A DNA stretch of 64,000 bases from a virus (lineage: Duplodnaviria; Caudoviricetes). The stretch lies in IMG/VR virus record IMGVR_UViG_3300042542_006078; one strand, written 5' to 3'. The notes beneath the pieces were generated by a model. That model made no database searches. It was not told the origin of the DNA and was given only the letters and a program-made list of their open reading frames with translations. Made by a program: the position numbers and the translations under genes. Positions 27,524 through 60,380 of the stretch are shown piece after piece; position 1 is the stretch's first letter, and the number at the start of each line of letters is the position of its first letter.

Positions 27524-29599
27524 ATGAACAAGCTGCAAAAAGTGATTTCAAATTTCAATCGTGAACAGTTCAAGGCAATCAATACTGAAATTTCTTTCTC
27601 AGAATATATTGATCTTTGCTATCAAAATCCAAAACTCATCCGTAATTCATGGCAGACCATCTATGACATGATCATGGAAAAGGGAAGTTATCCTGTTGAG
27701 GAATACCGCAAGACATATGTCAATTACAAGTTTTTTGATGATCCAGATTGTCCAATCGTTGGCTTGACCCCGATGAAGGACTCTCTCGTCAAGTTTATCA
27801 AGGGAGCGGCAGGCGGATACGGGACAGAACGCAGAATTCTTCTTCTTCATGGACCTGTTGGCAGTTCAAAGTCAACTATTCTCAGACTTATCAAGAGAAG
27901 TCTTGAGAAATACAGCAAGACTGATGCTGGAGCTTGGTATAGCTTCAAATGGGTGAATCTTCCTACAGGCGCTGATGGGATCTACAACAACCCAGAATGC
28001 GAATGCCCAATGCACGAACAACCTCTTAAGTTGCTCCCCAAGGAAGTTCGTGGACAAATCATTGCAGATATCAACAGGATTCATGAAGAAATCGCAACTC
28101 CACAAGAGAGGAGCGATATTTACACTCTTAAATGCAATGACGAACTTGATCCTCTTTGCAATTTCTTTATGAACGAACTTCTGAAGAGATACGAGGGTGA
28201 CCTTCAAAAAGTTCTTGACAACCATATTAAGGTCGTCAGAAAGGTCCATTCTGAAGCCAATCGTTGTGGAATCGCAACATTCCAGCCCAAAGATGAAAAG
28301 AATCAAGACAGCACAGAGCTAACAGGTGATATTAACTTCCGTAATATCGGAAACTTTGGTTCAGACAGCGATCCAAGATCATTCTCTTTTGATGGAGAAT
28401 TCTGTGCTGGCAACAGAGGAATAATCGAGTTTATTGAAGCACTTAAGCTCGATACTGCATTCCTTTATGACCTTCTTGGTGCATCCCAAGAACAAAGCAT
28501 CAAGCCAAAGAAGTTTGCTCAAGTAAGCATTGACGAGGCAATTTTTTCGCACACAAACGATCCAGAATTTCAGAAGCTCAAGAGCAACCAATATATGGAA
28601 GCTTTCCGTGATCGTACAACCAAGATTGATGTTCCTTACACCCTTAGATGGAACGAAGAGCTAAGGATTCTTGAAAAGGACTATGGTCCCGGTAAAGTTC
28701 GCCAACACATTGCTCCTCACACTCTTGAAATTGCCGCTTTGTGGAGTGTATTGACTCGTCTTGCTGACGATAAAGATGGCAAGATTAGCCTTGTCGAGAA
28801 GGCAGAACTTTATGATGGCAGGCTTCTTGCAGGATGGACTGAAGATTCTGTCAAGGAACTAAAAGACAAGTATCCCGAAGAGGGCATGAGTGGTGGGATT
28901 TCAGTTCGATATCTACAGGACAAGATTTCCAACTGCCTTGCCAACAATCATGACTATGTCAACATGTTCATGGTTCTCAATGAATTGCGTGACGGCCTTG
29001 ACCATTGCAGCTTGCTTACCAATAAGGAGCAAGTTGGCCGTTACATCACTTGTATCGATCTTGCAGTCAAGAAGTTGACTGAAATCTTGAAAGCGGAGGT
29101 TCAGAAGGCTTTGGTCGGCGATAAGGAAGCGATTAAGCGTCTTTGCTCAAACTACATCGATAACCTCATGGCATATATCAACAAGAGCAAGATTAAGGAT
29201 CAGATCACTGGCCAAGACCGCAAGCCAGACGAAAGGCTGATGCGTCAGATTGAGGAAAAGATTCAGATTCCAGATACTGGATGTGATGATTTCCGCCGTC
29301 AGATTGCCGCCTTCATCGGCCATCTTGCTCATGAGGGCAAGAGTTTTCAATGGGATTCCAATCCTAAGCTTCGCAAGGCTCTTGAGGCGAAACTTTTCGA
29401 GGATGTCAAGGACACCATCAAGTTAAGCGCACTCAATATGAGCGGAGCGAGTGTTGTTGACAAAGACTTGCAAGAAAAGATTGATGCAGTCAAGACAAGA
29501 CTCGTTAAAGAGTTTGGATACAACGAGAGAAGTGCAACGGATGTTCTAGAATTTGTTGGCGGAATTTTCTCCCGTGGCGATCTAGCCGAAGACGAGTGA
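27524..29599 (+). CDS. prkA: PrkA/YeaG-family AAA+ ATPase/serine kinase
   Basis: LLHGPVGSSKST, PMHEQPL, PKDEKNQDSTELTG, NRGIIEFIE, EAFRDR. Confidence 0.93.
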   Translation: MNKLQKVISNFNREQFKAINTEISFSEYIDLCYQNPKLIRNSWQTIYDMIMEKGSYPVEEYRKTYVNYKFFDDPDCPIVGLTPMKDSLVKFIKGAAGGYGTERRILLLHGPVGSSKSTILRLIKRSLEKYSKTDAGAWYSFKWVNLPTGADGIYNNPECECPMHEQPLKLLPKEVRGQIIADINRIHEEIATPQERSDIYTLKCNDELDPLCNFFMNELLKRYEGDLQKVLDNHIKVVRKVHSEANRCGIATFQPKDEKNQDSTELTGDINFRNIGNFGSDSDPRSFSFDGEFCAGNRGIIEFIEALKLDTAFLYDLLGASQEQSIKPKKFAQVSIDEAIFSHTNDPEFQKLKSNQYMEAFRDRTTKIDVPYTLRWNEELRILEKDYGPGKVRQHIAPHTLEIAALWSVLTRLADDKDGKISLVEKAELYDGRLLAGWTEDSVKELKDKYPEEGMSGGISVRYLQDKISNCLANNHDYVNMFMVLNELRDGLDHCSLLTNKEQVGRYITCIDLAVKKLTEILKAEVQKALVGDKEAIKRLCSNYIDNLMAYINKSKIKDQITGQDRKPDERLMRQIEEKIQIPDTGCDDFRRQIAAFIGHLAHEGKSFQWDSNPKLRKALEAKLFEDVKDTIKLSALNMSGASVVDKDLQEKIDAVKTRLVKEFGYNERSATDVLEFVGGIFSRGDLAEDE

Positions 29600-29646
29600 T
29601 GATTGAATTAACTTTATAAAAAGGTGACGATCAGTAAGGAGGATTC

Positions 29647-29868
29647 ATGACCATTCAGAACCATTGGTTACAGTCTGCTCAAGTCAAGCAACTCATGAAA
29701 GAAATTGATGAGATTGCTATGGATATTTGGTCACAAGATGGAACTCTTGGCGATCTGTTTTCTGCCTTGAATGACGATCATACTGATCTTCTTTTCTCGA
29801 TGAAGATCAAGGACTTTGCAAGCGATCCAAATGACATGTCATGCGGTATCGAGCTTGTTTCTCCTTAA
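29647..29868 (+). CDS. Hypothetical protein inserted in the prkA operon
   Basis: 73 aa, SD AAGGAGG. Confidence 0.65.
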   Translation: MTIQNHWLQSAQVKQLMKEIDEIAMDIWSQDGTLGDLFSALNDDHTDLLFSMKIKDFASDPNDMSCGIELVSP

Positions 29869-29874
29869 CCAGAA

Positions 29875-29897
29875 AGGAATCCGTCACAAGATGACGG
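29875..29897 (+). repeat. Solitary CRISPR-repeat-like hairpin B
   Basis: AGGAAT-CCGTC-ACAAGAT-GACGG, perfect stem with 7-nt loop, 7 nt before ATG 29905. Confidence 0.7.
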
Positions 29898-29904
29898 TTA
29901 AGCT

Positions 29905-31122
29905 ATGCCTCGTCGCATTCATGAAGATTGGCAGCATTTCCGTGATGTAATTTCAGGGCGAATCAGAAAAGCCCTGAAAAAATTCATCAAGAGCGGACAG
30001 ATCGTCAAAAATCGTGGAAAAAATGGCAAGATTTCCATTAACATCCCGAAAATTGACATTCCTCATATTGTTTATGGAAATAGTGGCGAGGGAGTTGGAA
30101 GAGGGGATGGTAAAGAAGGAGATGTCATAGGCAAAGATCCGCAAAATGGCAAGGGAAAAGGCAATGGAGCAGGTCAAGGAGAGGCTGAAGGAATCACAAT
30201 CAATCTTGATTTGGAAGATGTCCTGAGGTTTATGCAGGACGAACTTCAACTCCCAAATCTAAAGAAAAAGCCAAATGAAATTTACGATGAAATTAAAATC
30301 AAGTATAACAATATCAGTCTGATAGGACCAGAATCTCTTAGGCACAATAGAAGAACTCTCATGCAGACCTTGAAGCGTCAGGCTGCTGAGGGAACTCTTG
30401 AAAAACTAAATCATGTTGCTGGAATTAAAGACCCAGTCAGAGTTCTACAGCCAATCAATGAAGATAAGAGATACAGACAATTTAACGAAATTAAAATACC
30501 AAGCAGTAATGCTTTGATTGTCTTTGCCCGTGACGGATCTGGTTCCATGGATCAGGCCAAGTGTGAAATCGTCAGTGATATGGCTTGGTGGATCGATGTT
30601 TGGATTCGTCGTTTCTATGATCGTGTTGATCGCCTCTATGTTTGGCATGATAGTGAGGCCATGGAGGTTGATGAAAATAAATTTTATAAATATCGATTCG
30701 GAGGAGGAACAAATTGCTCCTCTGCTCTTAAATTTATTTCCAAGCAATTTGAGAACAGATATCCTCCAGAAAAGTGGAACATTTATGTTTTCTACTTTAC
30801 AGATGGCGACAACTGGGGAGAAGACAATCAGATTTTCATTGATACTCTTGCCAATGATTTTAAGCCTAATGTAGTCAATTTTACGGGTATCACACAGATT
30901 CTCGCATCATCCTATTCTGATTCAATCAAGCATCATGTTGATGAAGCGATTAAACAAGGCAAGCTTGACAAGGATTGCGTCAGGACTGTTGCAATAGGTG
31001 GTAGTCCAGATGGAAGGTCTTTGTGGACAGCGCCAAGTTTGAGCGATGATAATAGGAATGAGCAAATCATGGAAGCAATTCAACAACTTCTAGGAAACCC
31101 AAGTAAACTATCAAGGGAATGA
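29905..31122 (+). CDS. yeaH: YeaH/YhbH (DUF444) vWA-domain protein
   Basis: MIDAS DGSGS, GGGTNCSSAL, YFTDGDN; DKRYR motif. Confidence 0.9.
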   Translation: MPRRIHEDWQHFRDVISGRIRKALKKFIKSGQIVKNRGKNGKISINIPKIDIPHIVYGNSGEGVGRGDGKEGDVIGKDPQNGKGKGNGAGQGEAEGITINLDLEDVLRFMQDELQLPNLKKKPNEIYDEIKIKYNNISLIGPESLRHNRRTLMQTLKRQAAEGTLEKLNHVAGIKDPVRVLQPINEDKRYRQFNEIKIPSSNALIVFARDGSGSMDQAKCEIVSDMAWWIDVWIRRFYDRVDRLYVWHDSEAMEVDENKFYKYRFGGGTNCSSALKFISKQFENRYPPEKWNIYVFYFTDGDNWGEDNQIFIDTLANDFKPNVVNFTGITQILASSYSDSIKHHVDEAIKQGKLDKDCVRTVAIGGSPDGRSLWTAPSLSDDNRNEQIMEAIQQLLGNPSKLSRE

Positions 31123-31123
31123 T

Positions 31124-32719
31124 ATGAGCAGTAAATTTTTTCATGGTTCTAGCCTGCTTATGGGTGACAATACCGTTCCCGGTGTTCAACTTTCAAAAGA
31201 ACTTAAAGAATACATACCCAAAATTCTTCAAGCATGTCGTGATTGGGGCCTTGATTTCTATCCCACAGTTGTCCAGTTGTTGACATATGACGAAATTAGC
31301 GAAGTTGCCGCTTATGGTGGTTTCCCTGTCCGTTTTCCACATTGGTCATTTGGGATGGAGTACGAAGAGCTACAGCGTGGATATGAATTCGGTGGACACA
31401 AGATATACGAAATGGTTGTCAATTGTAATCCATGTTACATTTATAATCTTGCTTCAAACACTCTTGCTGACCATCTGACTGTTGTTGCACATGCGACAGG
31501 ACACAATGACTTTTTCAAGAACAATATTCATTTCAGCGCAACTGACACGAATATGATGAATAAAATGGCGAATCATTCTGCTAGGATTCGCAATTATATG
31601 AGCAGATGGGGCAAAGAAAGAGTAACTGAATTCCTTGATCATGTTATGCGTTTAGAAACACTTATTGATGGTTCAGATGCTTGGACAGATAGGGTTATAA
31701 AAGATAGGAATATTCGTGATGAAAGAAAGTACAATAAGCCTCAATTATTGAATGTTGATAAGCAAAGGCTTTACATGGAGCCTTTCATCAATACTACTGC
31801 ATTTCGTAAGAAGCAGAATGAAGATGTTCATGAGAGAGACATAGCAGACGAAATTGGCTTATTCAAGGAACCAACTAAGAACATTTTGGGATTTATTCGT
31901 GATAATGCTCCATTAAAGCCTTGGCAAGCCGATATTGTCTCTATGCTTTATGAGGAGGCGATTTATTTCTTCCCTCAAAGACAAACTAAGGTTGGGAACG
32001 AAGGATGGGCCTCCTTAACGGACTCTGTAATCATGGCAGAGCAGGGATTCATAAGCCTTGGTCAAAAGTCTGATGATTGCGGCATTGTTGAATACGCTGA
32101 TCATAAAATGGGTGTTCTTGGTGGGAAATACAGTATGAATCCTTACAAGTTGGGATTCTACTTATTTTCTGATATTCGTGAGCGTTGGGACAAGGGAAGA
32201 TTTGGGCAAGAGTACGAAGAATGCACGGACATGCACAAGAAAGAGAATTGGGATACAGGTGCTATGCTCGGCAAGGAAAAAATCTTTGAAGTCAGGAAGT
32301 ATTATGATGACCTGACTATGATCCATGAATTCTTTACAGAAGAGTTTTGCCGAAAACAGGAATATTTCCATTGGAAACATTATCCAAACGGAGAATACAG
32401 GCTTGAATCCCGTGATTATCAAAAGATCAAGAAGGGTTTGATGCAGAGGCATGTTAATGGTGGACTTCCAGACATTAGACTCATGGAGCCAAATTACGGT
32501 GGTCGTGGAATCATGATGCTTCAACATTTTTCTGACGGAAGGCCTCTTCACGATCCTTACATTGGTGATGTTTTAAGTTCAATCCGTTTTATTTGGAATA
32601 ATGATGTTATTCTTTCAACAAACTCCGATGATGGTAAGGAAAGGGTTTATTGGCAAAGAGCCAATTACCTTGATATCACGGATAGGTCTAAATTCGACAA
32701 ATCTTTGAATAATTTCTGA
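31124..32719 (+). CDS. spoVR: SpoVR/YcgB-family protein
   Basis: GGFPVRFPHWSFG, KIYEMVVN, VVAHATGHNDFFKNN, NEGWAS, NPYKLG. Confidence 0.93.
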   Translation: MSSKFFHGSSLLMGDNTVPGVQLSKELKEYIPKILQACRDWGLDFYPTVVQLLTYDEISEVAAYGGFPVRFPHWSFGMEYEELQRGYEFGGHKIYEMVVNCNPCYIYNLASNTLADHLTVVAHATGHNDFFKNNIHFSATDTNMMNKMANHSARIRNYMSRWGKERVTEFLDHVMRLETLIDGSDAWTDRVIKDRNIRDERKYNKPQLLNVDKQRLYMEPFINTTAFRKKQNEDVHERDIADEIGLFKEPTKNILGFIRDNAPLKPWQADIVSMLYEEAIYFFPQRQTKVGNEGWASLTDSVIMAEQGFISLGQKSDDCGIVEYADHKMGVLGGKYSMNPYKLGFYLFSDIRERWDKGRFGQEYEECTDMHKKENWDTGAMLGKEKIFEVRKYYDDLTMIHEFFTEEFCRKQEYFHWKHYPNGEYRLESRDYQKIKKGLMQRHVNGGLPDIRLMEPNYGGRGIMMLQHFSDGRPLHDPYIGDVLSSIRFIWNNDVILSTNSDDGKERVYWQRANYLDITDRSKFDKSLNNF

Positions 32720-33321: not shown

Positions 33322-36300
33322 ATGATGTCTGATAATATTATTCTGCCTTACAACTCTAAACTTGCCCCCGATGAGCGTAAGCAAAGGCTTCTGAACGACA
33401 CATTCAATTGGTTTGATATGTGTAACGAAGTTTTTTTTGACTTCGTGAAGAATCTGTATGGCGGAGTGAAGCATGAACATTTGATTCTTGTGAATTTTGC
33501 CGAGAAACCCAAGAAGGTTAGCAATAGTAAAAAGCCTAAGAAAAAAGATCAGGAAGTCAACATTCATGTTGAGCCCAATCAAGCCGAATGGGTTGACAAT
33601 GCTTGTGCCACATTCTGGTTTCGATTGCAGGCAAAATCAACAGTACAATTAGACCAATCAGTCCAGACAGCAGAAGAGCGTATTCGACGATTTCGGGATT
33701 ATGCTGGTCACGAGCCATCATCATTTGCCAAATCTTATCTAAATGGTAATTATGATCCAGAGAAGACTGAATGGGTTGATTGCAGGCTTCTTTATGTCAA
33801 TTTTTGCCGTAATCTGAATGTCAACCTTGATGCGGACATTCGCACAATGGTCGAACACAATCTTCTTCCTGTTCTCCCCGGTCAGGATTTCAAAACCAAC
33901 AATGTATTCTCCAACATTTTTGGAGTAGGCAATAAGGAAGACAAGGGTCAAAAAACGAACTGGCTTAACACGGTCGCAGAAGGCCTTCAGTCCAAGGAAA
34001 TTTGGAATTGGGATGAGTATCGTGATTTGATATCAAGATCTACTGGATGCTCTACGGCAGCAGAACTGAGGTCTGAGTCGATTGGCAGGCCAAGCATGCT
34101 TGCAGTTGATTTTGCATCTGAGAAATCAGGCCAAATATCACAGGAATGGCTTGCAGAAAGGGTTAAGTCTTTTAGGGCAGCAGCTTCTCAAAAAAGCAAA
34201 ATCTATGACATGCCTAATCGTCTTGTTTTGAAGGAATACATTGCTTCAAAAATCGGGCCTTTCAAACTTGAAAGGTGGTCTGCTGCTGCCGTTTCTGCTT
34301 ATAAGGATGTCCGCAGCAAGAATAGTATCAATTTGCTTTATTCCAAGGAAAGATTGTGGCGATGCAAGGAAATTGCTCAGATTTTGGTTGATAATCCGCA
34401 GGTTGCTGAAGCCCAACAGATTCTTGTTAATTATTCTTCTGGTGATACCAATTCATTCACAGTTGAAAATCGTCACATGGGCGATTTGACTGTTCTTTTC
34501 AAGATTTGGGAAAAGATGGATATGGATTCTGGCATAGAACAGTATTCCGAAATTTATCGTGATGAATATAGTCGTGATCCAATTACAGAGTTGCTACGCT
34601 ATCTCTACAATCATAGGCATATTTCGGCAAAAACTTTTAGGGCTGCTGCAAGGTTGAATTCTCTTTCGCTGAAGAATGATCGTAAGAAAATTCACCCGAC
34701 TATCAGTGGTAGGACTAGCGTTTCTTTCGGCCATTCAACAATCAAGGGATGCATTACTCCTCCCGATCATATTGTCAAAAATCGAAAAGAGAATGCTGGA
34801 AGCACTGGCATGATCTGGGTTACAATGCAGCTTATCGATAATGGTCGATGGGCGGATCATCATATTCCTTTCCACAATTCTCGCTACTATCGTGATTTTT
34901 ATGCTTATCGTGCCGATCTACCGACTATTTCTGATCCTCGTCGTAAATCTTTTGGACATAGGATCGGCAATAATATTAGCGATACAAGGATGATTAATCA
35001 TGATTGCAAAAAAGCATCAAAAATGTATCTTCGCACAATCCAGAATATGACGCACAATGTGGCATTCGACCAGCAGACTCAGTTCGCTGTTCGTCGTTAT
35101 GCTGATAATAATTTCACGATTACGATCCAAGCTAGGGTTGTAGGGAGGAAATATAAAAAGGAAATATCAGTTGGTGATCGTGTGATGGGTGTTGACCAGA
35201 ATCAGACCACAAGTAACACATATTCTGTTTGGGAAGTAGTTGCTGAAGGGACTGAAAATTCTTACCCATATAAGGGCAATAATTATCGTCTCGTTGAGGA
35301 TGGATTTATTCGCAGCGAATGCAGTGGTCGAGATCAGCTTTCCTATGATGGTCTTGATTTTCAGGACTTTGCTCAATGGCGCAGGGAAAGATACGCATTT
35401 TTATCTTCTGTTGGATGTATTCTCAATGACGAAATCGAGCCTCAAATCCCTGTTAGTGCCGAAAAGGCAAAAAAGAAGAAGAATTTTTCTAAGTGGCGTG
35501 GTTGTTCTCTTTATAGTTGGAACCTCTGTTATGCATATTATCTTAAGGATTTGATGCATGAGAACTTGGCAAATAATCCTGCTGGATTCCGACAGGAAAT
35601 TCTGAATTTTATTCAGGGTTCTAGGGGCGTGAGGCTTTGTTCCCTTAATCACACTAGCTTCCGACTTCTCTCTAAAGCCAAGTCTCTAATTCATTCATTT
35701 TTTGGTCTAAACAATATCAAAGATCCTGAATCTCAAAGGGATTTTGATCCAGAAATTTATGACATAATGGTCAATCTGACACAAAGGAAGACCAACAAGA
35801 GGAAGGAAAAAGCTAATCGCATCACTTCTTCAATTTTGCAAATTGCCAATAGGCTGAATGTCAGTCGTATTGTGATTGAGAACGATTTGCCGAATGCAAG
35901 TTCCAAAAACAAGGCATCAGCCAATCAAAGGGCAACTGATTGGTGTGCTAGAAATGTATCTGAGAAATTAGAATATGCCTGCAAGATGCTTGGTATCAGC
36001 TTATGGCAGATTGATCCAAGGGACACATCGCACCTTGATCCATTTGTTGTGGGCAAGGAGGCTAGATTTATGAAAATAAAGGTTTCTGATATTAACGAAT
36101 ACACTATCAGTAATTTCAAAAAGTGGCATGCAAACATTGCTACAACAAGTACTACAGCACCTCTTTATCATGATGCTTTGAAGGCATTTTCTTCTCATTA
36201 TGGAATTGATTGGGACAATTTGCCAGAAATGAAGTTTTGGGAATTGAAGAATGCCTTGAAAGACCATAAAGAGGTGTTTATCCCAAATCGTGGTGGTCGC

Positions 36301-36423
36301 TGCTATTTATCGACATTGCCGGTGACTTCTACATCTGAAAAGATTGTTTTCAATGGAAGAGAGAGATGGTTGAACGCAAGTGATATTGTGGCAGGAGTTA
36401 ACATTGTGCTAAGATCAGTATGA
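33322..36423 (+). CDS. cas12i: Type V-I CRISPR effector Cas12i
   Basis: 1033 aa adjacent to the array; RuvC-I RVMGVDQNQ, RuvC-II IVIENDLP, RuvC-III ASDIVAGVNI; DQLSYDG and RGGRCYLST motifs; repeat 3' end has Cas12i2-type architecture (from memory). Confidence 0.93.
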   Translation: MMSDNIILPYNSKLAPDERKQRLLNDTFNWFDMCNEVFFDFVKNLYGGVKHEHLILVNFAEKPKKVSNSKKPKKKDQEVNIHVEPNQAEWVDNACATFWFRLQAKSTVQLDQSVQTAEERIRRFRDYAGHEPSSFAKSYLNGNYDPEKTEWVDCRLLYVNFCRNLNVNLDADIRTMVEHNLLPVLPGQDFKTNNVFSNIFGVGNKEDKGQKTNWLNTVAEGLQSKEIWNWDEYRDLISRSTGCSTAAELRSESIGRPSMLAVDFASEKSGQISQEWLAERVKSFRAAASQKSKIYDMPNRLVLKEYIASKIGPFKLERWSAAAVSAYKDVRSKNSINLLYSKERLWRCKEIAQILVDNPQVAEAQQILVNYSSGDTNSFTVENRHMGDLTVLFKIWEKMDMDSGIEQYSEIYRDEYSRDPITELLRYLYNHRHISAKTFRAAARLNSLSLKNDRKKIHPTISGRTSVSFGHSTIKGCITPPDHIVKNRKENAGSTGMIWVTMQLIDNGRWADHHIPFHNSRYYRDFYAYRADLPTISDPRRKSFGHRIGNNISDTRMINHDCKKASKMYLRTIQNMTHNVAFDQQTQFAVRRYADNNFTITIQARVVGRKYKKEISVGDRVMGVDQNQTTSNTYSVWEVVAEGTENSYPYKGNNYRLVEDGFIRSECSGRDQLSYDGLDFQDFAQWRRERYAFLSSVGCILNDEIEPQIPVSAEKAKKKKNFSKWRGCSLYSWNLCYAYYLKDLMHENLANNPAGFRQEILNFIQGSRGVRLCSLNHTSFRLLSKAKSLIHSFFGLNNIKDPESQRDFDPEIYDIMVNLTQRKTNKRKEKANRITSSILQIANRLNVSRIVIENDLPNASSKNKASANQRATDWCARNVSEKLEYACKMLGISLWQIDPRDTSHLDPFVVGKEARFMKIKVSDINEYTISNFKKWHANIATTSTTAPLYHDALKAFSSHYGIDWDNLPEMKFWELKNALKDHKEVFIPNRGGRCYLSTLPVTSTSEKIVFNGRERWLNASDIVAGVNIVLRSV

Positions 36424-36601
36424 TGCGAGTGATTGGGTGCCGTAGCAAATTCAGCACCCTCTCGCAATTCGTAAATCTTTAACTTGATTCGTTTTAAGCG
36501 AATCTGCTCTTTGACAAGTAGGTGATTATGGGGATTTGCGGGTGACCCTCTCGCAAAGAATGGCGTAATCTTTTATGCAGTATGGCTTTGTGAGGTGAGC
36601 C
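36424..36601 (+). other. CRISPR leader region
   Basis: Between cas12i and repeat 1; degenerate repeats lie at the opposite end; contains hairpins and ACCCTCTCGCAA twice. Confidence 0.6.
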
Positions 36602-37293
36602 CTCTCAATGCCTTAGAAATCCGTCCAAAGTTGACGGGGCAGAATTGCTGTGAGTATCCAAAATGGATTTGAGGCTCGCAATGCCTTAGAAATCCGTCCT
36701 TGGTTGACGGTGTCCTTCAGAGCGAGCAAAGTTTCCCAAGAAATACTCTCAATGCCTTAGAAATCCGTCCAAAGTTGACGGCGTGATTCCCTTGTGCAGA
36801 TTGGGCGGCACGGGCACTCTCAATGCCTTAGAAATCCGTCCAAAGTTGACGGCTGATCTCCATTTCTGATTGACGGGCATCAGCGGCACTCGCAATGCCT
36901 TAGAAATCCGTCCAAAGTTGACGGGACAGCGGACCTAAAGCGATGGCGAAAAACTTACAAACTCGCAATGCCTTAGAAATCCGTCCAAAGTTGACGGTCG
37001 TAATAGAGGGGGACTGTTGCCCCGTCCTCAATTGCTCGCAATGCCTTAGAAATCCGTCCTTGGCTGACGGGAAACTGGTTGATATGCTATCGATTCGAGT
37101 GTATTTCTCGCAATGCCTTAGAAATCCGTCCAAAGTTGACGGGTTAGGTGTCATCCCGATCCATCCTACAGGTTGGAGACCTCTCAATGCCTAAGAAATC
37201 CGTCCATAGTTGACGGACGGTACTCTGATAAGGACTGCCAGAACCCAACCGATAGTACTCTCAATGCCTAAGAAATCCGTTCAAAGTTGACGG
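36602..37293 (+). CRISPR. CRISPR array: 10 repeats of 36 nt, 9 spacers of 35-41 nt
   Basis: Consensus CTC(T/G)CAATGCCTTAGAAATCCGTCCAAAGTTGACGG; repeats start at 36602, 36675, 36746, 36817, 36889, 36962, 37035, 37107, 37181, 37258. Confidence 0.99.
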
Positions 37294-37333
37294 ATAGACG
37301 GAAGAAATGTGGCAAAATTATTTTATTTGCAAT

Positions 37334-37388
37334 TGTAAATAATTTTTTATTACAAGTGTAAATAATTTTTTATTACAAGTGTAAATAA
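37334..37388 (+). repeat. 23-bp tandem repeat carrying three TAAATA motifs
   Basis: TGTAAATAATTTTTTATTACAAG x2 plus partial third copy. Confidence 0.85.
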
Positions 37389-37419
37389 ATCATACATCCC
37401 CTTACGCTTGGAGAAAAAA

Positions 37420-38046
37420 ATGCAGAGTTTTAGTGAATTCTTAAATAGAAAAAAAGGCAACTCTCTTGCGGAATCAATTGTTCGCAGTGGAATTGATTCA
37501 GAATTTTTTTGCGAGACTGTCACGAACGCAGCTAGAAGAGTGAATCCCAGAGATCCTCGTGCTGTTGACAGAATTGTTGAAACTGTTTACAACGAGTTCC
37601 TCGGCAGGATGCTAGGTGGTCTTGGAAATGTTCTGGGAAAGAGTGCTGCTCAATCAACATTCGGCACAAAAACCGCCGCTGCTGCTGGTAGCAAGGCCCT
37701 TCAAGCTGGTCAGTATCTTGGCGGCAAGGCCCTTCAAGCTGGTCAGTATCTTGGCGACAAGGCCGTTCAAGCTGGTCAGGCAATCAAGCAAAGCGCCCAA
37801 AATATTGGCGACAATTACATGCAAGGCGCTCAAGTTGCTCAATTGAATAAGGTCAAAGGTCAAGTTGAAAACATGAAGCAAAACTTGGTACAAATTTTAG
37901 GAAACTATGGTATGACATCAGGATTTACCGACAATATTAACAAACAACTCGACTCACTGTCTAAAAAGCTTCAGCAAATTCTTGATCAAGTTTCCCAAGA
38001 CGCAACTCTCCGTGCTGGTCCCGGTGGAGTTAAGCCTGTAAGGTAA
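37420..38046 (+). CDS. Candidate virion internal protein with 11-aa repeats
   Basis: MQSFSEFL...SLAE; KALQAGQYLGG-type repeats (33-bp units, 37692-37779). Confidence 0.7.
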   Translation: MQSFSEFLNRKKGNSLAESIVRSGIDSEFFCETVTNAARRVNPRDPRAVDRIVETVYNEFLGRMLGGLGNVLGKSAAQSTFGTKTAAAAGSKALQAGQYLGGKALQAGQYLGDKAVQAGQAIKQSAQNIGDNYMQGAQVAQLNKVKGQVENMKQNLVQILGNYGMTSGFTDNINKQLDSLSKKLQQILDQVSQDATLRAGPGGVKPVR

Positions 38047-38628: not shown

Positions 38629-40092
38629 TTGAAAGATTTAGAAAATAGCAATAAGATGACTGGAAGGGTTATTGGCATGGACATGAAAGAAGTGTCAATG
38701 AAGATGGAGATTACCGGCTACGAACATCTTCATCTTCATTCGGATTTTTCAACCTTGGATGGATTCGGCCAAGTTGAAGAGTATTGTGTCCGTGCGCCGA
38801 AAATTAATCAAAATTTTCTTACTATTTCTGATCACGGGATGATGGGAGCGGTTCCTCGTCAAATTAAAGGATGTGAAAAGATCAATGACAAACTTGGTAA
38901 GGATACTTTGTCCCCAATTTTTGCAGTTGAGTTATATGTAAATCGCTTGCAAACTGAGATGACGGAAGAGAATGAAGGTAAGAAAATATATTCAAGCCTT
39001 ACTGAAATAGAACAAAACGAGTTCAAAAGTAGCAGCCATCTTCTTGCTATAGCTACAAATCAAGAAGGATATAAGAACCTTGTTCGCTTGTCGTCATGGG
39101 GTTGGACAAAAGGATTTTATCGTCGCCCCAGAGTCAATTATGAACAAATTAAAAAATACAAGGAAGGAATTATTTTTACTTCTTGCTGTTATGCAAGCGA
39201 GATAGGAAGAGCATTTGAAAGAGGTGGGGAAGACGAAGCGAACAATATGATTGAAAGATATATTGAAATGTTCGGTAAGGAACATTTTTATCTTGAGATT
39301 ATGCTTCTCGATTTTAAGAAGCAAAAGCCTTATGACAAATTTATTGTTAAGGCAAAAGAGCGATATGGATTGAAAATTATACTTTCAAATGATGTCCATT
39401 ATTGCAACAAAGAGGATAGTCATTATCAAAGATTGATGCTGATGATTCAGACAAATCGTACAATTGCTGAAATTGAAAAGGCATTAAAAGAAGATTCGGA
39501 TCAAGATTTTTTTGAGTTGCAGGATGCCAATCTTTGGATGAAGAGTGAAGAAGAATTAAATGCAAAGTGGTTGTCAGATTATGCGGACACTATTCCTTAT
39601 GAAATATTCTGCGAGGCAAAGAGAACTACTGTTGATATTTGCAGGAAAGCAAAAGGTGTTCAGCTTGATAGGAGCTTAAAGTTGCCTGTCATTCCTGATG
39701 GTGATGATAAGCTTAAAGAGGAAATTATGATTGGTTTCCAAAGTCGTGGATTGCCTAAAAATAGAGAATATTTAGATAGAATAAAAGAAGAATATAGTCT
39801 TATTACGAGGAAGGGATTTACAAGTTACTTTCTAATACAAAAGATGATGACAGATGAGGCTAGAAGGGTTTGTCGTGATATTTTGGGTTTTGGTGATGGT
39901 TCACAGGCTGTTGGTCCGGGTCGTGGGAGTTGTTGTGGTTCCCTTATTTGTTATTGTCTTGGAATCACAAGTGTTGATCCAGTTCGTGAAGGATTGCTTT
40001 TCAGTCGCTTTATGAGTGAAGCTCGTGGAGGCAGAAGTCTTAAATTGGAGTTCAGCAATATTGACCCCTTGCCTCCTGATGAGTTGTCTTAA
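38629..40092 (+). CDS. dnaE: DNA polymerase III alpha, N-terminal part (PHP domain plus GS-motif segment)
   Basis: HLHLHS, SDHG, AVELY, SNDVHY, SYFL, GPGRGS, LGITSVDP, LLFSRF; ends before the PDxDxD motif. Confidence 0.9.
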   Translation: MKDLENSNKMTGRVIGMDMKEVSMKMEITGYEHLHLHSDFSTLDGFGQVEEYCVRAPKINQNFLTISDHGMMGAVPRQIKGCEKINDKLGKDTLSPIFAVELYVNRLQTEMTEENEGKKIYSSLTEIEQNEFKSSSHLLAIATNQEGYKNLVRLSSWGWTKGFYRRPRVNYEQIKKYKEGIIFTSCCYASEIGRAFERGGEDEANNMIERYIEMFGKEHFYLEIMLLDFKKQKPYDKFIVKAKERYGLKIILSNDVHYCNKEDSHYQRLMLMIQTNRTIAEIEKALKEDSDQDFFELQDANLWMKSEEELNAKWLSDYADTIPYEIFCEAKRTTVDICRKAKGVQLDRSLKLPVIPDGDDKLKEEIMIGFQSRGLPKNREYLDRIKEEYSLITRKGFTSYFLIQKMMTDEARRVCRDILGFGDGSQAVGPGRGSCCGSLICYCLGITSVDPVREGLLFSRFMSEARGGRSLKLEFSNIDPLPPDELS

Positions 40093-45906: not shown

Positions 45907-48660
45907 ATGCTTCATCTCTGGCAGATAAAAATGATTAATGATAAGGCAAGGTTTGTTGATCTTCTTGATTCTGCCATGAAGTCTAGAGGACTTTCTGGCA
46001 AAAAGTTATATGAAAAAAGGCTTAAGTGGGAAACAGAAGAAATCCTTGCAAAGGATAAGCAAAGTTATTTTCTTGATCTTTTTGACAGGAAGATTAAGTA
46101 TCCATCCAATCAAAATAATTTACTGGTTTGTTGGCTTCTAGGCATAGTTCAAGACTTTGATATTAATGATGAGCCAGCGAATCATTTTACGGGTGATTTG
46201 CCTGATGTGGACATTGATTATATTCCCATGGTCAGGGATTATTTGAAAAATGAATGGGCACCTAAAACATTTGGCGAAGAATATGTTTGCAACATTGGCA
46301 ACTATACCACATTCGGGATTAAGTCGGCTTTAATTGACATGGCAAGGGTTCATGGTGAGAGTCGTGAAGAGGTTATGGCTGTCACTAAAAACCTTGACGC
46401 TAAGGACGACGAAGGAAATCCAATCACATGGGATGCCGCCATAAGACTCGATCCTGATTTCAAATCTTATGTTGAAAAGTATCCTTCTGTGGCAGAGGCA
46501 ACTAAAAAACTAATCAATCGTAATCGTGGAATGGGAGTTCATGCAGGAGGCTTGATTATATCAAGAAATCCAATTCACGATCTTGTTCCTCTAGTGAAAA
46601 GAAAGGATAACCCGCAAGCAAGTGCTTGGGTAGAGGGTCTTCATGGACAAGACTTGCAACCTGTGGGTTTGGTTAAATTTGATTTATTAGTTATTTCAAA
46701 CCTTTTACAAATTGCTCGTTGTTGTGAGATGGTAAAGAGCAGGCGTGGAATAACCAGTATTTGTGGAAGGCCGGGAGAGCCTGATTGGTCTGATGTCGAT
46801 TCTTGGAGAAATGACGCAGATTCTTTGGCCATGGCCAATTCCGCTGATCTCAAGTGCATATTCCAATTTGATTCGGAAGGTATTCGTGGCCTTGTGAGAG
46901 CAGGAGGAGTAGATCGATTTGAGGATTTGGTGGTTTACTCAGCGATTTTTCGTCCCGGCTGTTTGAAAGTTTTAATGGACAAGCGTTATGTTGAGCGCAA
47001 GAAAGGTCGTGAAAAATTTGAATTGCATCCACTAATCAAGCCAATCCTTGAAAAAACTTATGGAGTCATGGTTTATCAAGAACAAATCATGAAAATATTG
47101 CATGTCGTTGGTAATATTCCTCTTAAAGATTGTGAGGCTGTAAGAAAGGCGATTAGTAAGAAGAAAATTGAATCAATTGCAAAATATAAAGACATGTTCA
47201 TTGAAAATGGAATGAAAAATTTAAGTTACACCAAAGAACAAATGGAGGAATTTTTTGCACAGATACTTTCTTTCAGCGAATACGGATTTAATTTATCGCA
47301 TGCCGTGGCTTACAATTACATAAGCATGTATCTTTTGTATCTCAAATCTCATTATCCTCCTGAATTTTATGCAAGCATGCTGTCATGTGAGACAGTGAGT
47401 GATAAAATAAAAGATTTCAAAATGGAGGCAAAGATACATGGCGTTAACATGCACAGGCTTGATATCAATAAGTCAAAAGTGAATTTTGAGTTAGTTGGCG
47501 ACATGATTTATTATGGTTTTTCAAATGTAAAGGGAATTGGAGAAGGTCCGGCTCAAAAGATAGTTTCCAATCAACCTTATTCATCTTTTGAAGATTTTCT
47601 TTATAGATGCAGCACGGACTCTTCAATACTTAAACCAATTTTAGGACTGCGTTGTTTTAGGGATCGTGATCCTATTACATTGTGGAAGTTTGCTGAACAT
47701 TTCAAGGATTGCTTGAAGAAAAATGAAGACAGGAGAAAAAGGTTTGAGGCTATTTTGCAGAAGTACGAGGAAGATTTGAAGATTTTGTTGCCAGAATGTG
47801 GTTTTAAGTTATCTGATCTTAAAGGTGAATCTCCATTTGATGGAAGAGAATATCAAGAAAAATATGATATTAATGAAGAAATTGAGGTTTTGAAAGAATA
47901 TGAATGTGATCCTAGTGAGGGTGTTGGCCGAATTGAAATGGAAACTATGATAGTAGATGGTACTGATGTGACAATTGAAAGAGAAGTGATGAGGCACTAT
48001 AAAAAAATTGTTACAAAGAGGCCTTGGAATAGATGGAATGAGTTGAAGAAGTTGTGGGTCAAGAGACTTAGGTCAATTCAGAAATTTTCCGAAACTGAAA
48101 TGAGATCTTTGCCGAAGCTAATTGGATTCGACGCAGACAAATATGATGTTCCTAAAGAACTTGAGAAGGATTTTAGGAATCCTATTCTTTGTGAGGAAAA
48201 GTATTATGGTTTTGCTTGGATACATGAGCTTGAAAGAAGTCCTGATTATAAAGGCAATCTGACTTTTGATGCTATTCGTAGCAATCATGATGGATCAAGT
48301 GGTCCTGTTGAGTTGAAAATTAAGAAAGTTGAAGAAAAGACTAGCAAGAAGGGATCAAGTTATTGGCAGATTGCAGCGGAAGATGTGACGGGCCAAGAAA
48401 ATAAAATAAATATTTGGGCTGATGATTGGAATAGGTGGAGCAAGGAATTTGTCAAAGGTAACTTACTTAGGGTAAGGCTTCAGCCTCCAAATGGGGGATT
48501 TCCAACATTTTTGTTGGAATCAAATCAGGGTAGTGGAAGATTCCGATTCCAGAAAAAATATCATGATAAGGAAGACGATCCTAGAGTCATTATTATGAGG
48601 TTTGGTAAGGCTGAAGAAGAAAAGCATATGACTGATGAGGAAGTGTTGAATTTGCTTTAA
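45907..48660 (+). CDS. dnaE: DNA polymerase III alpha, C-terminal part (catalytic Asp, thumb, fingers, HhH, OB)
   Basis: LPDVDIDY, GVHAGG, VKFDLL, IFQFDS, YGVMVYQEQ, YGFNLSHA, NVKGIG. Confidence 0.92.
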   Translation: MLHLWQIKMINDKARFVDLLDSAMKSRGLSGKKLYEKRLKWETEEILAKDKQSYFLDLFDRKIKYPSNQNNLLVCWLLGIVQDFDINDEPANHFTGDLPDVDIDYIPMVRDYLKNEWAPKTFGEEYVCNIGNYTTFGIKSALIDMARVHGESREEVMAVTKNLDAKDDEGNPITWDAAIRLDPDFKSYVEKYPSVAEATKKLINRNRGMGVHAGGLIISRNPIHDLVPLVKRKDNPQASAWVEGLHGQDLQPVGLVKFDLLVISNLLQIARCCEMVKSRRGITSICGRPGEPDWSDVDSWRNDADSLAMANSADLKCIFQFDSEGIRGLVRAGGVDRFEDLVVYSAIFRPGCLKVLMDKRYVERKKGREKFELHPLIKPILEKTYGVMVYQEQIMKILHVVGNIPLKDCEAVRKAISKKKIESIAKYKDMFIENGMKNLSYTKEQMEEFFAQILSFSEYGFNLSHAVAYNYISMYLLYLKSHYPPEFYASMLSCETVSDKIKDFKMEAKIHGVNMHRLDINKSKVNFELVGDMIYYGFSNVKGIGEGPAQKIVSNQPYSSFEDFLYRCSTDSSILKPILGLRCFRDRDPITLWKFAEHFKDCLKKNEDRRKRFEAILQKYEEDLKILLPECGFKLSDLKGESPFDGREYQEKYDINEEIEVLKEYECDPSEGVGRIEMETMIVDGTDVTIEREVMRHYKKIVTKRPWNRWNELKKLWVKRLRSIQKFSETEMRSLPKLIGFDADKYDVPKELEKDFRNPILCEEKYYGFAWIHELERSPDYKGNLTFDAIRSNHDGSSGPVELKIKKVEEKTSKKGSSYWQIAAEDVTGQENKINIWADDWNRWSKEFVKGNLLRVRLQPPNGGFPTFLLESNQGSGRFRFQKKYHDKEDDPRVIIMRFGKAEEEKHMTDEEVLNLL

Positions 48661-60354: not shown

Positions 60355-60380
60355 CTTAGAAATCCGTCAATATTAGACGG
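60355..60380 (+). repeat. Solitary CRISPR-repeat-like hairpin E
   Basis: CTTAGAAATCCGTC (14-nt exact match to the repeat)-AATATTA-GACGG, 3 nt before ATG 60384. Confidence 0.8.

Follow-up and report, generated by a model that had tools for sequence, protein, structure and literature searches.

A type V-I CRISPR-Cas12i locus of a huge phage with leader-end spacer gain and a spacer matching hsdR

Results

Identity of the Cas12i effector

The locus lies on the plus strand of a 64-kb stretch of DNA (hereafter the window) and consists of cas12i (33322..36423), a leader (36424..36601), and a CRISPR array (36602..37293). cas12i encodes a protein of 1033 residues. With this open reading frame as the query, phmmer searches of the PDB matched Cas12i2 full-length at E = 1e-96 and Cas12i1 at E = 9e-53, and the next-best Cas12 was a Cas12j-like protein at E = 0.1. 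The PADLOC Cas12i and CAS-V-I models both returned E = 0. Thus, the similarity and profile searches proposed in the initial annotation upheld its assignment to type V-I, with Cas12i2 and Cas12i1 as the best matches and no other subtype.

The three intact RuvC motifs that had been read from the sequence were borne out by alignment. D625, E853, and D1021 aligned with the acidic RuvC triad of Cas12i2 and were invariant in 10 orthologs; E853 is the counterpart of Cas12i2 E833, the residue mutated in 6LTR. Likewise, K20, H513, and H514 aligned with K18, H485, and H486, the pre-crRNA processing residues of Cas12i2. The roles of these residue types in Cas12i2 and a processing site between U(-24) and A(-23) have been described (PMC7567891). 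As judged from these alignments, the effector is a Cas12i in which the RuvC triad and the pre-crRNA processing residues are intact. Identity to Cas12i1 amounted to only 24% in the alignment; Cas12i2 is closer, yet still a distant ortholog. The protein falls in one of four subclades, which are about 55% apart. Its exact sequence is already present in public databases, in line with the earlier suspicion that the protein was not new. The contig with the structurally solved Cas12i1 is related to that of this phage and is classed as viral by IMG/VR.

Leader and CRISPR array

Both the 178-nt leader and the 10-repeat array noted in the initial annotation were recovered. The array comprises ten 36-nt repeats, of which the two at the trailer end are degenerate, and nine spacers of 35-41 nt. 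Each repeat closes with a Cas12i2-type handle of 23 nt that has an AGAA start, a 5-bp stem, and a 7-nt loop; the chance expectation for such matches was 0 (100 shuffles). AGAA occupied positions -23 to -20 in all ten repeats, and U was found at position -24 in eight of them (A in the two trailer repeats). The orientation of the handle puts the spacers 3' of it, and the strand of the array is that of cas12i. Rfam gave no matches.

Within the leader, a small hairpin (36486-36504) is followed by a block (36505-36527) that varied at one position only across three Cas12i lineages. This conserved block is probably the array promoter or a leader signal. A sigma-70 promoter scan of the cas12i/array locus gave nothing above chance. 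The end of the leader (36584-36594) and the initial 11 nt of repeat 1 (36602-36612) can form an 11-pair stem (36584..36612, plus strand). Two to three of these pairs were changed on both sides across the three lineages, and the fold had z = -4.7 and -3.2 in two relatives and -1.1 in the window. The leader end was the sole stretch complementary to the repeat, and it pairs with the 5' part of repeat 1 that is discarded.

Phage context of the cas12i slot

The window encodes DnaB, a RecA-like protein, a split Pol III alpha subunit, ThyX, and IF3, and it yielded strong PHROG matches. Its genomic backbone is common to many large contigs. The relatives whose cas12i occupies this slot are listed as viral in IMG/VR, and one of them, a syntenic record of 225 kb, contains a tail sheath gene (E = 5e-17); a more distant Cas12i adjoins a GpA-type terminase gene. 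Searches of the relatives' viral fragments for Gp23 capsid, Terminase_6C, and T4 prohead protease gave no match, and two of these three families were silent in control genomes too. The synteny with huge-phage records supports a phage origin of the system, as had been proposed.

The slot holding the cassette has a fixed position in the phage replication module and hypervariable content. Its variants included a catalytically intact Cas12i without an adjacent array (L009), an array with a single remaining repeat, and a deletion of cas12i. On occasion, the cassette is exchanged, loses its array, or is deleted.

Ongoing spacer gain and search for adaptation genes

Three strain variants (L028, L027, and L022) were compared with the window. 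Their flanks were about 99.4% identical, and their Cas12i proteins were 99.5-99.7% identical. Only trailer spacers 9, 8, and sometimes 4 were common to the window and these variants; spacers 8 and 9 and the intervening repeat (37143..37257, plus strand) lie at the trailer end. In addition, each variant possessed two to six unique leader-end spacers. Because the leader end differs between nearly identical strains, spacers are still being gained, and this gain is polar at the leader end. The same array was also present in four other samples, which had raised the alternative of a static array. It was rejected, since those contigs proved to be clonal, with 100% identity across as much as 23 kb; the slightly diverged strains with different arrays also speak against it.

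Cas1, Cas2, and Cas4 were not found with PADLOC models among the 83 non-overlapping open reading frames of at least 55 residues in the window, in agreement with the initial annotation, nor at E <= 0.01 among the 70 that were otherwise unassigned. Within the phage's own genome, this search covered 64 kb of a 434,573-bp contig. Adaptation genes were likewise not found in relatives' records of 80, 168, 225, 48, and 59 kb, and the short flanks of cas12i on four further contigs lacked cas1, cas2, and cas4. When 185,579 species genomes were scanned with a pattern for the repeat and two peptide patterns specific to the clade, neither this repeat nor this Cas12i clade turned up in a cellular genome, which is weak evidence limited by the patterns. 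The earlier proposal of spacer acquisition in trans was thus upheld by the strain comparison as far as acquisition is concerned, whereas the supply in trans is deduced from the lack of adaptation genes in the window and in the relatives' 168- to 225-kb records.

Spacers related to type I restriction genes

Spacer 6 (36998..37034, plus strand) matched hsdR on four plasmids in a blastn search of PLSDB; the hit genes were identified as HsdR by annotation and Pfam architecture. Its reverse complement reads in frame as IEDGATVPLYY, a motif of the HsdR motor domain, and all 11 residues were identical to those of bona fide HsdR. The five mismatches to the Sinomonas hsdR were all synonymous third-codon positions. 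tblastx gave E = 7e-5, compared with best values of 0.003-0.018 for shuffled spacers. These matches are homologues in distant bacteria rather than exact protospacers, and their location on plasmids reflects a library that consists of plasmids and does not tell chromosome from mobile element. TTC precedes the match in the Sinomonas homologue, a mere hint of a TTN motif.

A spacer of the sister phage L013 encodes RSQYDTLALNM, identical to the DEAH-box region of HsdR (tblastx E = 1e-4 to 2e-4). A tentative third case is a spacer of L006, for which 8 of 12 residues were identical and all 12 similar to HsdM (E = 0.001). Taken together, the residue-level matches indicate that at least one spacer is a copy of part of the type I restriction gene hsdR. 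Two or three phage lineages appear to have taken type I restriction genes as targets independently of one another. The matches suggest that the phage points its CRISPR system at a host defense system.

About 77 other spacers, including those of four further arrays, had no PLSDB match at E <= 1. Window spacers 1, 2, and 7 and the first spacer of L028 had no exact match in IMG/VR, and a scan of JGI metagenome contigs for spacer 1 was likewise negative. No INPHARED phage was hit when four arrays were searched by blastn; five viral records did not match the window array, and Escherichia coli genomes did not match spacer 6. None of 139 spacers matched 435 kb of related phage DNA, and the back-translated HsdR motif had 0 matches in 2.9 million viral contigs. 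Because only very conserved genes can be detected through distant homologues, an enrichment for defense genes is not measurable. Spacer GC was 48.8% versus 37.5% for the window; mean spacer GC was 47-49% versus 37% for these phages. Use against host genes or competing elements had been proposed in the initial annotation. The part concerning host genes is supported, via homologues, by the HsdR-derived spacer 6; the part concerning competing elements is not, as no spacer matched any phage or related phage loci in these searches.

Discussion

In our view, the locus probably represents a working minimal type V-I interference cassette of a freshwater huge phage of about 435 kb, which is directed at the host, including type I restriction-modification, and acquires spacers through non-adjacent integrases. 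The array would be transcribed from the conserved leader block, and Cas12i would cleave the resulting RNA 23 nt upstream of every spacer. Guided by these crRNAs, Cas12i may then reach double-stranded DNA beside a TTN motif. Targets would mainly lie in the DNA of the host or of elements residing in it, including a type I restriction-modification locus, and the cassette would serve counter-defense or host takeover rather than competition between phages. The benefit of counter-defense is unclear, since cutting hsdR would leave the restriction enzyme present at phage entry. New spacers would be inserted by integrases not encoded beside the array, with the host as their most likely source. A bolder and decidedly more tentative view is that V-I is essentially a huge-phage subtype, which this freshwater clade uses as an updatable counter-defense aimed time and again at host hsdR, perhaps also hsdM. 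Spacers would then be captured by a heterologous host system or an undescribed phage mechanism, without a V-I-linked Cas1-Cas2.

Competition with co-infecting viruses has been put forward for many arrays of huge phages and demonstrated for the mini-arrays of archaeal viruses (PMC7162821, PMC11656645), and the spacers of L017 and L018 are AT-rich and phage-like in composition. Nevertheless, we consider it improbable that this is the main role of the cassette, because spacer matches were missing from IMG/VR (4 spacers), INPHARED (4 arrays), and related phage loci, the GC content of the spacers is well above that of these phages, and the sole spacers of identifiable origin come from restriction genes of the cellular type. 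Somewhat less probable still is that Cas12i mainly binds or cuts RNAs of the phage itself, at solitary repeat hairpins within mRNA leaders, the array being secondary. Repeat-like hairpins do lie just upstream of a DUF444 gene (29881-29897) and of infC (60364-60380), and the L009 phage has kept its intact Cas12i without an adjacent array. However, the turnover of leader-end spacers and the hsdR-derived spacers point to an array that is used as an array; moreover, the RuvC DNase triad is invariant, and a natural cas12i deletion retains the DUF444 hairpin.

Cas1, Cas2, Cas4, or another integrase might also be encoded elsewhere in the same 434-kb genome and serve the array in cis. The spacer turnover is real, the search covered 64 of 434 kb, and the cellular genomes of 185,579 species gave no match to this repeat, all of which would fit such an arrangement; we regard it as rather unlikely given that the window and the relatives' five records (48-225 kb) contained no such genes. 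Very improbable, finally, is a bacterial or plasmid-borne locus on a contig miscalled as phage. This idea draws on the unmatched capsid, terminase, and prohead protease families in the relatives' fragments and on a window with replication and metabolism genes only, but it conflicts with the tail sheath gene on the syntenic record, the viral classification of the relatives, the PHROG matches, the widely shared backbone, and the terminase gene beside a distant Cas12i.

Type V-I with Cas12i1 and Cas12i2 was reportedly described by Yan et al. in 2019. The present system resembles these two (6W5C, 6LTU) in its single effector of about 1030-1090 residues, the RuvC triad, the K/H/H processing site, a 36-nt repeat that ends in a 23-nt crRNA handle starting with AGAA, the array adjoining the effector, and the lack of adaptation genes. 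It differs in its low identity to Cas12i1 and in the leader end that pairs with the first repeat. The Vibrio phage ICP1 is said to use a type I-F CRISPR-Cas system against the PLE defense island (Seed et al., 2013). Common to both are a phage CRISPR system aimed, here putatively, at a host defense element and a variable anti-defense slot that other strains fill differently. ICP1, however, has its own adaptation module, a class 1 effector, and a target that replicates during infection, whereas the phage studied here has a class 2 effector, no adaptation genes nearby, and a restriction-gene target linked through homologues only.

Type V-I systems of huge phages without acquisition genes, as invoked in the initial annotation, have already been published (Al-Shayeb 2020; PMC7162821). 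These systems, including cas12i of LP_PHAGE_36_12, share with ours the conserved catalytic residues, a compact array, the lack of Cas1, Cas2, and Cas4, and some host-gene spacers. The host targets reported there belong to transcription and translation (PMC7162821); in contrast, the identifiable spacers found here come from type I restriction-modification genes, and polar spacer gain was seen by strain comparison. According to the part of PMC11656645 that cites Benz et al. (2024), type IV-A3 plasmid CRISPR systems gain spacers in trans via host Cas1-Cas2. That example likewise concerns a mobile-element CRISPR system that lacks adaptation genes and still gains spacers; as presented there, a host I-E system and compatible repeats are known, whereas neither this repeat nor this Cas12i clade was seen in any cellular genome scanned here. 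ICP1 is the only phage with tested CRISPR counter-defense (PMC11656645).

The general claim and the protein were thus already known; new are the strain-level spacer gain, the restriction-gene spacers, the variation of the slot, and the context of Cas12i1. These observations address two open questions, namely the targets of huge-phage CRISPR systems and the source of spacers for arrays without Cas1-Cas2. The locus points to type I restriction genes as a concrete class of targets open to testing, and it provides a natural strain series that displays leader-end spacer gain. The cas12i deletion, the Cas12i without an array, and the one-repeat array offer natural controls. Since the prototype Cas12i1 lies on a related phage-like contig, the locus bears on the natural role of a family of genome-editing enzymes.

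The cas12i Effector and Its Array

The cas12i ORF (33322-36423, + strand) encodes a protein of 1033 aa. A phmmer search of this protein against all PDB chains returned Cas12i2 (E 1e-96) and Cas12i1 (E 9e-53), each matched over the full length, and the next best Cas12 type followed at E 0.1. The PADLOC Cas12i and CAS-V-I models detected the effector with E = 0; Pfam held no model for it, and NCBIfam recognized only its TnpB-like RuvC core. As evident from the alignment, RuvC residues D625, E853, and D1021 are the counterparts of the active-site residues of Cas12i2, among them E833, which is mutated in entry 6LTR. All three residues were unchanged in 10 of 10 orthologs including Cas12i1. Furthermore, K20, H513, and H514 pair with Cas12i2 K18, H485, and H486, which catalyze the processing of pre-crRNA at the U(-24)|A(-23) junction (PMC7567891).

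The CRISPR array (36602-37293, + strand) consists of ten 36-nt repeats and nine spacers of 35-41 nt. The repeats start with AGAA, preceded by U in eight of ten, and continue into a 5-bp stem capped by a 7-nt loop; because of this start and stem-loop, the array is read on the + strand with the spacers 3' of the handle. Nine copies of the repeat handle were found in the window at ≤3 mismatches and none in shuffled sequences. Both trailer repeats are degenerate, in line with their position at the leader-distal end. The leader measures exactly 178 nt. Thus, the initial annotation was confirmed in its 1033-aa effector with three RuvC acidic motifs, its 178-nt leader, and its 10-repeat array, and the best matches of the effector were Cas12i2 and Cas12i1 rather than another Cas12 type. 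On every feature that can be tested in sequence, the locus conformed to type V-I. The repeat hairpin (5-bp stem, 7-nt loop) also occurs singly at two sites, just 5' of the DUF444 gene (29881-29897) and just 5' of infC (60364-60380).

Within the leader, a 23-nt block (36505-36527) is invariant at all but one position across three lineages. The leader end (from 36584) repeats, in inverted orientation, the 11 nt with which repeat 1 opens (to 36612), and the two pair. In three Cas12i lineages, two to three pairs of this stem are altered on both sides with the stem kept. The stem may serve RNA processing, transcription, or as an integration signal. Directly 3' of the array and 5' of the next gene, three tandem 23-nt AT-rich units are present (37321-37389). 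They are probably a phage promoter motif because L009, a related contig, has a similar unit ahead of the homologous gene. A 33-nt tandem repeat (37682-37832) lies within a 212-aa ORF 3' of the array and differs in length by 44 nt between the window and L002 from another sample.

Phage Context and Adaptation Genes

Proteins encoded in the window include a DnaB-like helicase, a RecA-like protein, a Holliday-junction-type helicase, ThyX, dCMP deaminase, IF3, and peptide deformylase, as well as a PrkA/DUF444/SpoVR triad (27524-32719) and a Pol III α subunit split in two. In the same slot, cas12i is also found in relatives, which are viral records in IMG/VR (168 and 225 kb, with an estimated completeness of 39 and 52%); a tail sheath gene was detected on the larger one (E 5e-17). 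No match to capsid, terminase, or protease families was obtained in the viral fragments of the relatives. Given the gene content, the viral relatives, and the tail sheath gene, a phage origin of the locus is very probable, as judged from the window and the records of its relatives.

The two Pol III α parts, a PHP-domain gene (38629-40092) and the remainder (45907-48660), are 5.8 kb apart, and related phages have the same split. The interval holds three minus-strand genes that are much less conserved between relatives (32-64%) than the flanks (88%), together with a glycosyltransferase/methyltransferase gene, an AAA gene, and a 177-aa ORF. In two related phages, the SpoVR gene (L006:6049-8847 and L009:5852-8752) carries an intein with a LAGLIDADG endonuclease that is absent from the window.

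As the initial annotation had stated, cas1, cas2, and cas4 are missing from the 64 kb: PADLOC found no adaptation genes among the 83 window ORFs. Cas1, Cas2, and Cas4 Pfam models had no match in six related viral records, and the short flanks of four more distant Cas12i contigs held no adaptation genes; on one of these four, a GpA-type terminase gene adjoins cas12i.

The Cas12i Slot and the Wider Family

In related phages, the slot flanked by SpoVR and the PHP part of Pol III is hypervariable and holds orthologs of only 42-47% identity. Flanking proteins of L009 are 92-96.5% identical to those of the window, whereas the figure for its Cas12i, which lacks an array, is 42-45%. The Cas12i of L006 is found again on contigs L007 and L008, each of which has a single repeat against 30 in L006; assembly collapse may account for these two. 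In the close strain variant L022, 3.7 kb (window 33396-37111) have been lost by deletion, and 26 codons of cas12i remain.

At E ≤ 1e-30, the Cas12i family comprised only 41 cluster representatives among 1.84 billion proteins. Four deep subclades share 45-49% mutual identity, with the catalytic residues kept in all. A 48.6-kb IMG/VR contig classed as viral (locus L019:8509-12982) encodes a protein that matches crystallized Cas12i1 (PDB chain) with 100% identity across 1093 aa; an 11-repeat array lies upstream and tRNA-Pro downstream. Because this contig is classed as viral and is syntenic with window 15-25 kb (helicase 50% identical), prototype Cas12i1 appears to stem from a related huge phage.

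Spacer Turnover between Strains

The identical array occurs in four other samples; the contigs concerned, however, are clones that show no difference over up to 23 kb. A static array was ruled out, as strains that are ~99.4% identical differ in their arrays. Three such strains (L022, L027, and L028) were recovered by a metagenome scan with the repeat; their flanks are ~99.4% and their Cas12i 99.5-99.7% identical. The L028 array holds two unique spacers followed by window spacers 4, 8, and 9 (numbered from leader to trailer), that of L027 six unique spacers followed by window spacer 9, and that of L022 window spacers 8 and 9 only. Such a pattern, in which trailer spacers are common and leader-end spacers unique, is the hallmark of polarized acquisition plus internal deletions, and spacer acquisition thus operates in the window lineage. 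The window repeat and Cas12i clade were absent among 185,579 species genomes in pattern-limited tests.

A ~21-nt spacer is common to the L006 and L017 arrays (L006:13477-13497, L006:15342-15362, and L017:13673-13693) and is duplicated inside L006; these arrays otherwise share almost no spacer. Several arrays contain 19-27-nt spacers among the usual 35-41-nt ones.

Spacers Matching Type I Restriction Genes

Exact protospacers were not found in the searches run. Spacers have a GC content of 48.8% versus 37.5% for the window. When the array was compared by blastn with the plasmid library PLSDB, all four matches fell within spacer 6 (36998-37034), and all lay in genes annotated as type I restriction endonuclease subunit R, on a Sinomonas and three Geobacillus plasmids. 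These genes have full HsdR architecture and adjoin hsdS. The reverse complement of spacer 6 translates as IEDGATVPLYY, which is the sequence of Sinomonas HsdR residues 462-472, and all five nucleotide mismatches are at synonymous third-codon positions. A tblastx comparison of all 139 spacers from related arrays against the Sinomonas type I locus followed. In L013, whose array is of the sister repeat type, one spacer reads RSQYDTLALNM, identical to a segment beside the DEAH box of this Sinomonas HsdR despite seven nucleotide differences. Spacer 6 and the L013 spacer scored E 7e-5 and 2e-4, against a best of 0.003-0.018 in five shuffled-spacer sets. Tentatively, an L006 spacer matched the hsdM frame of this Sinomonas locus (8/12 residues identical, 12/12 similar, E 0.001). 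Approximately 77 other spacers had no PLSDB match at E ≤ 1; distant homologues reveal very conserved segments only. The back-translated HsdR motif had zero matches in 2.9 million viral contigs and, among the loci compared, matched only arrays and the Sinomonas gene.

From these sequence comparisons and controls, we conclude that spacer 6 derives from an hsdR gene carried by a cell or by an element resident in one, and that spacers of this kind recur in the phage group. Cutting the hsdR gene leaves already-made restriction enzyme in place. In a limited literature search, restriction genes were not named among the targets of phage CRISPR systems in a 2024 review on CRISPR in mobile elements.

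A type V-I system on a huge phage without adaptation genes is an already known kind of system. The protein itself, suspected in the initial annotation not to be new, is already publicly present, and an identical one was found on a 434,573-bp contig. The new leads are strain-level spacer gain, restriction-gene spacers, and cassette dynamics, which are worth following up at the bench and in metagenomes.
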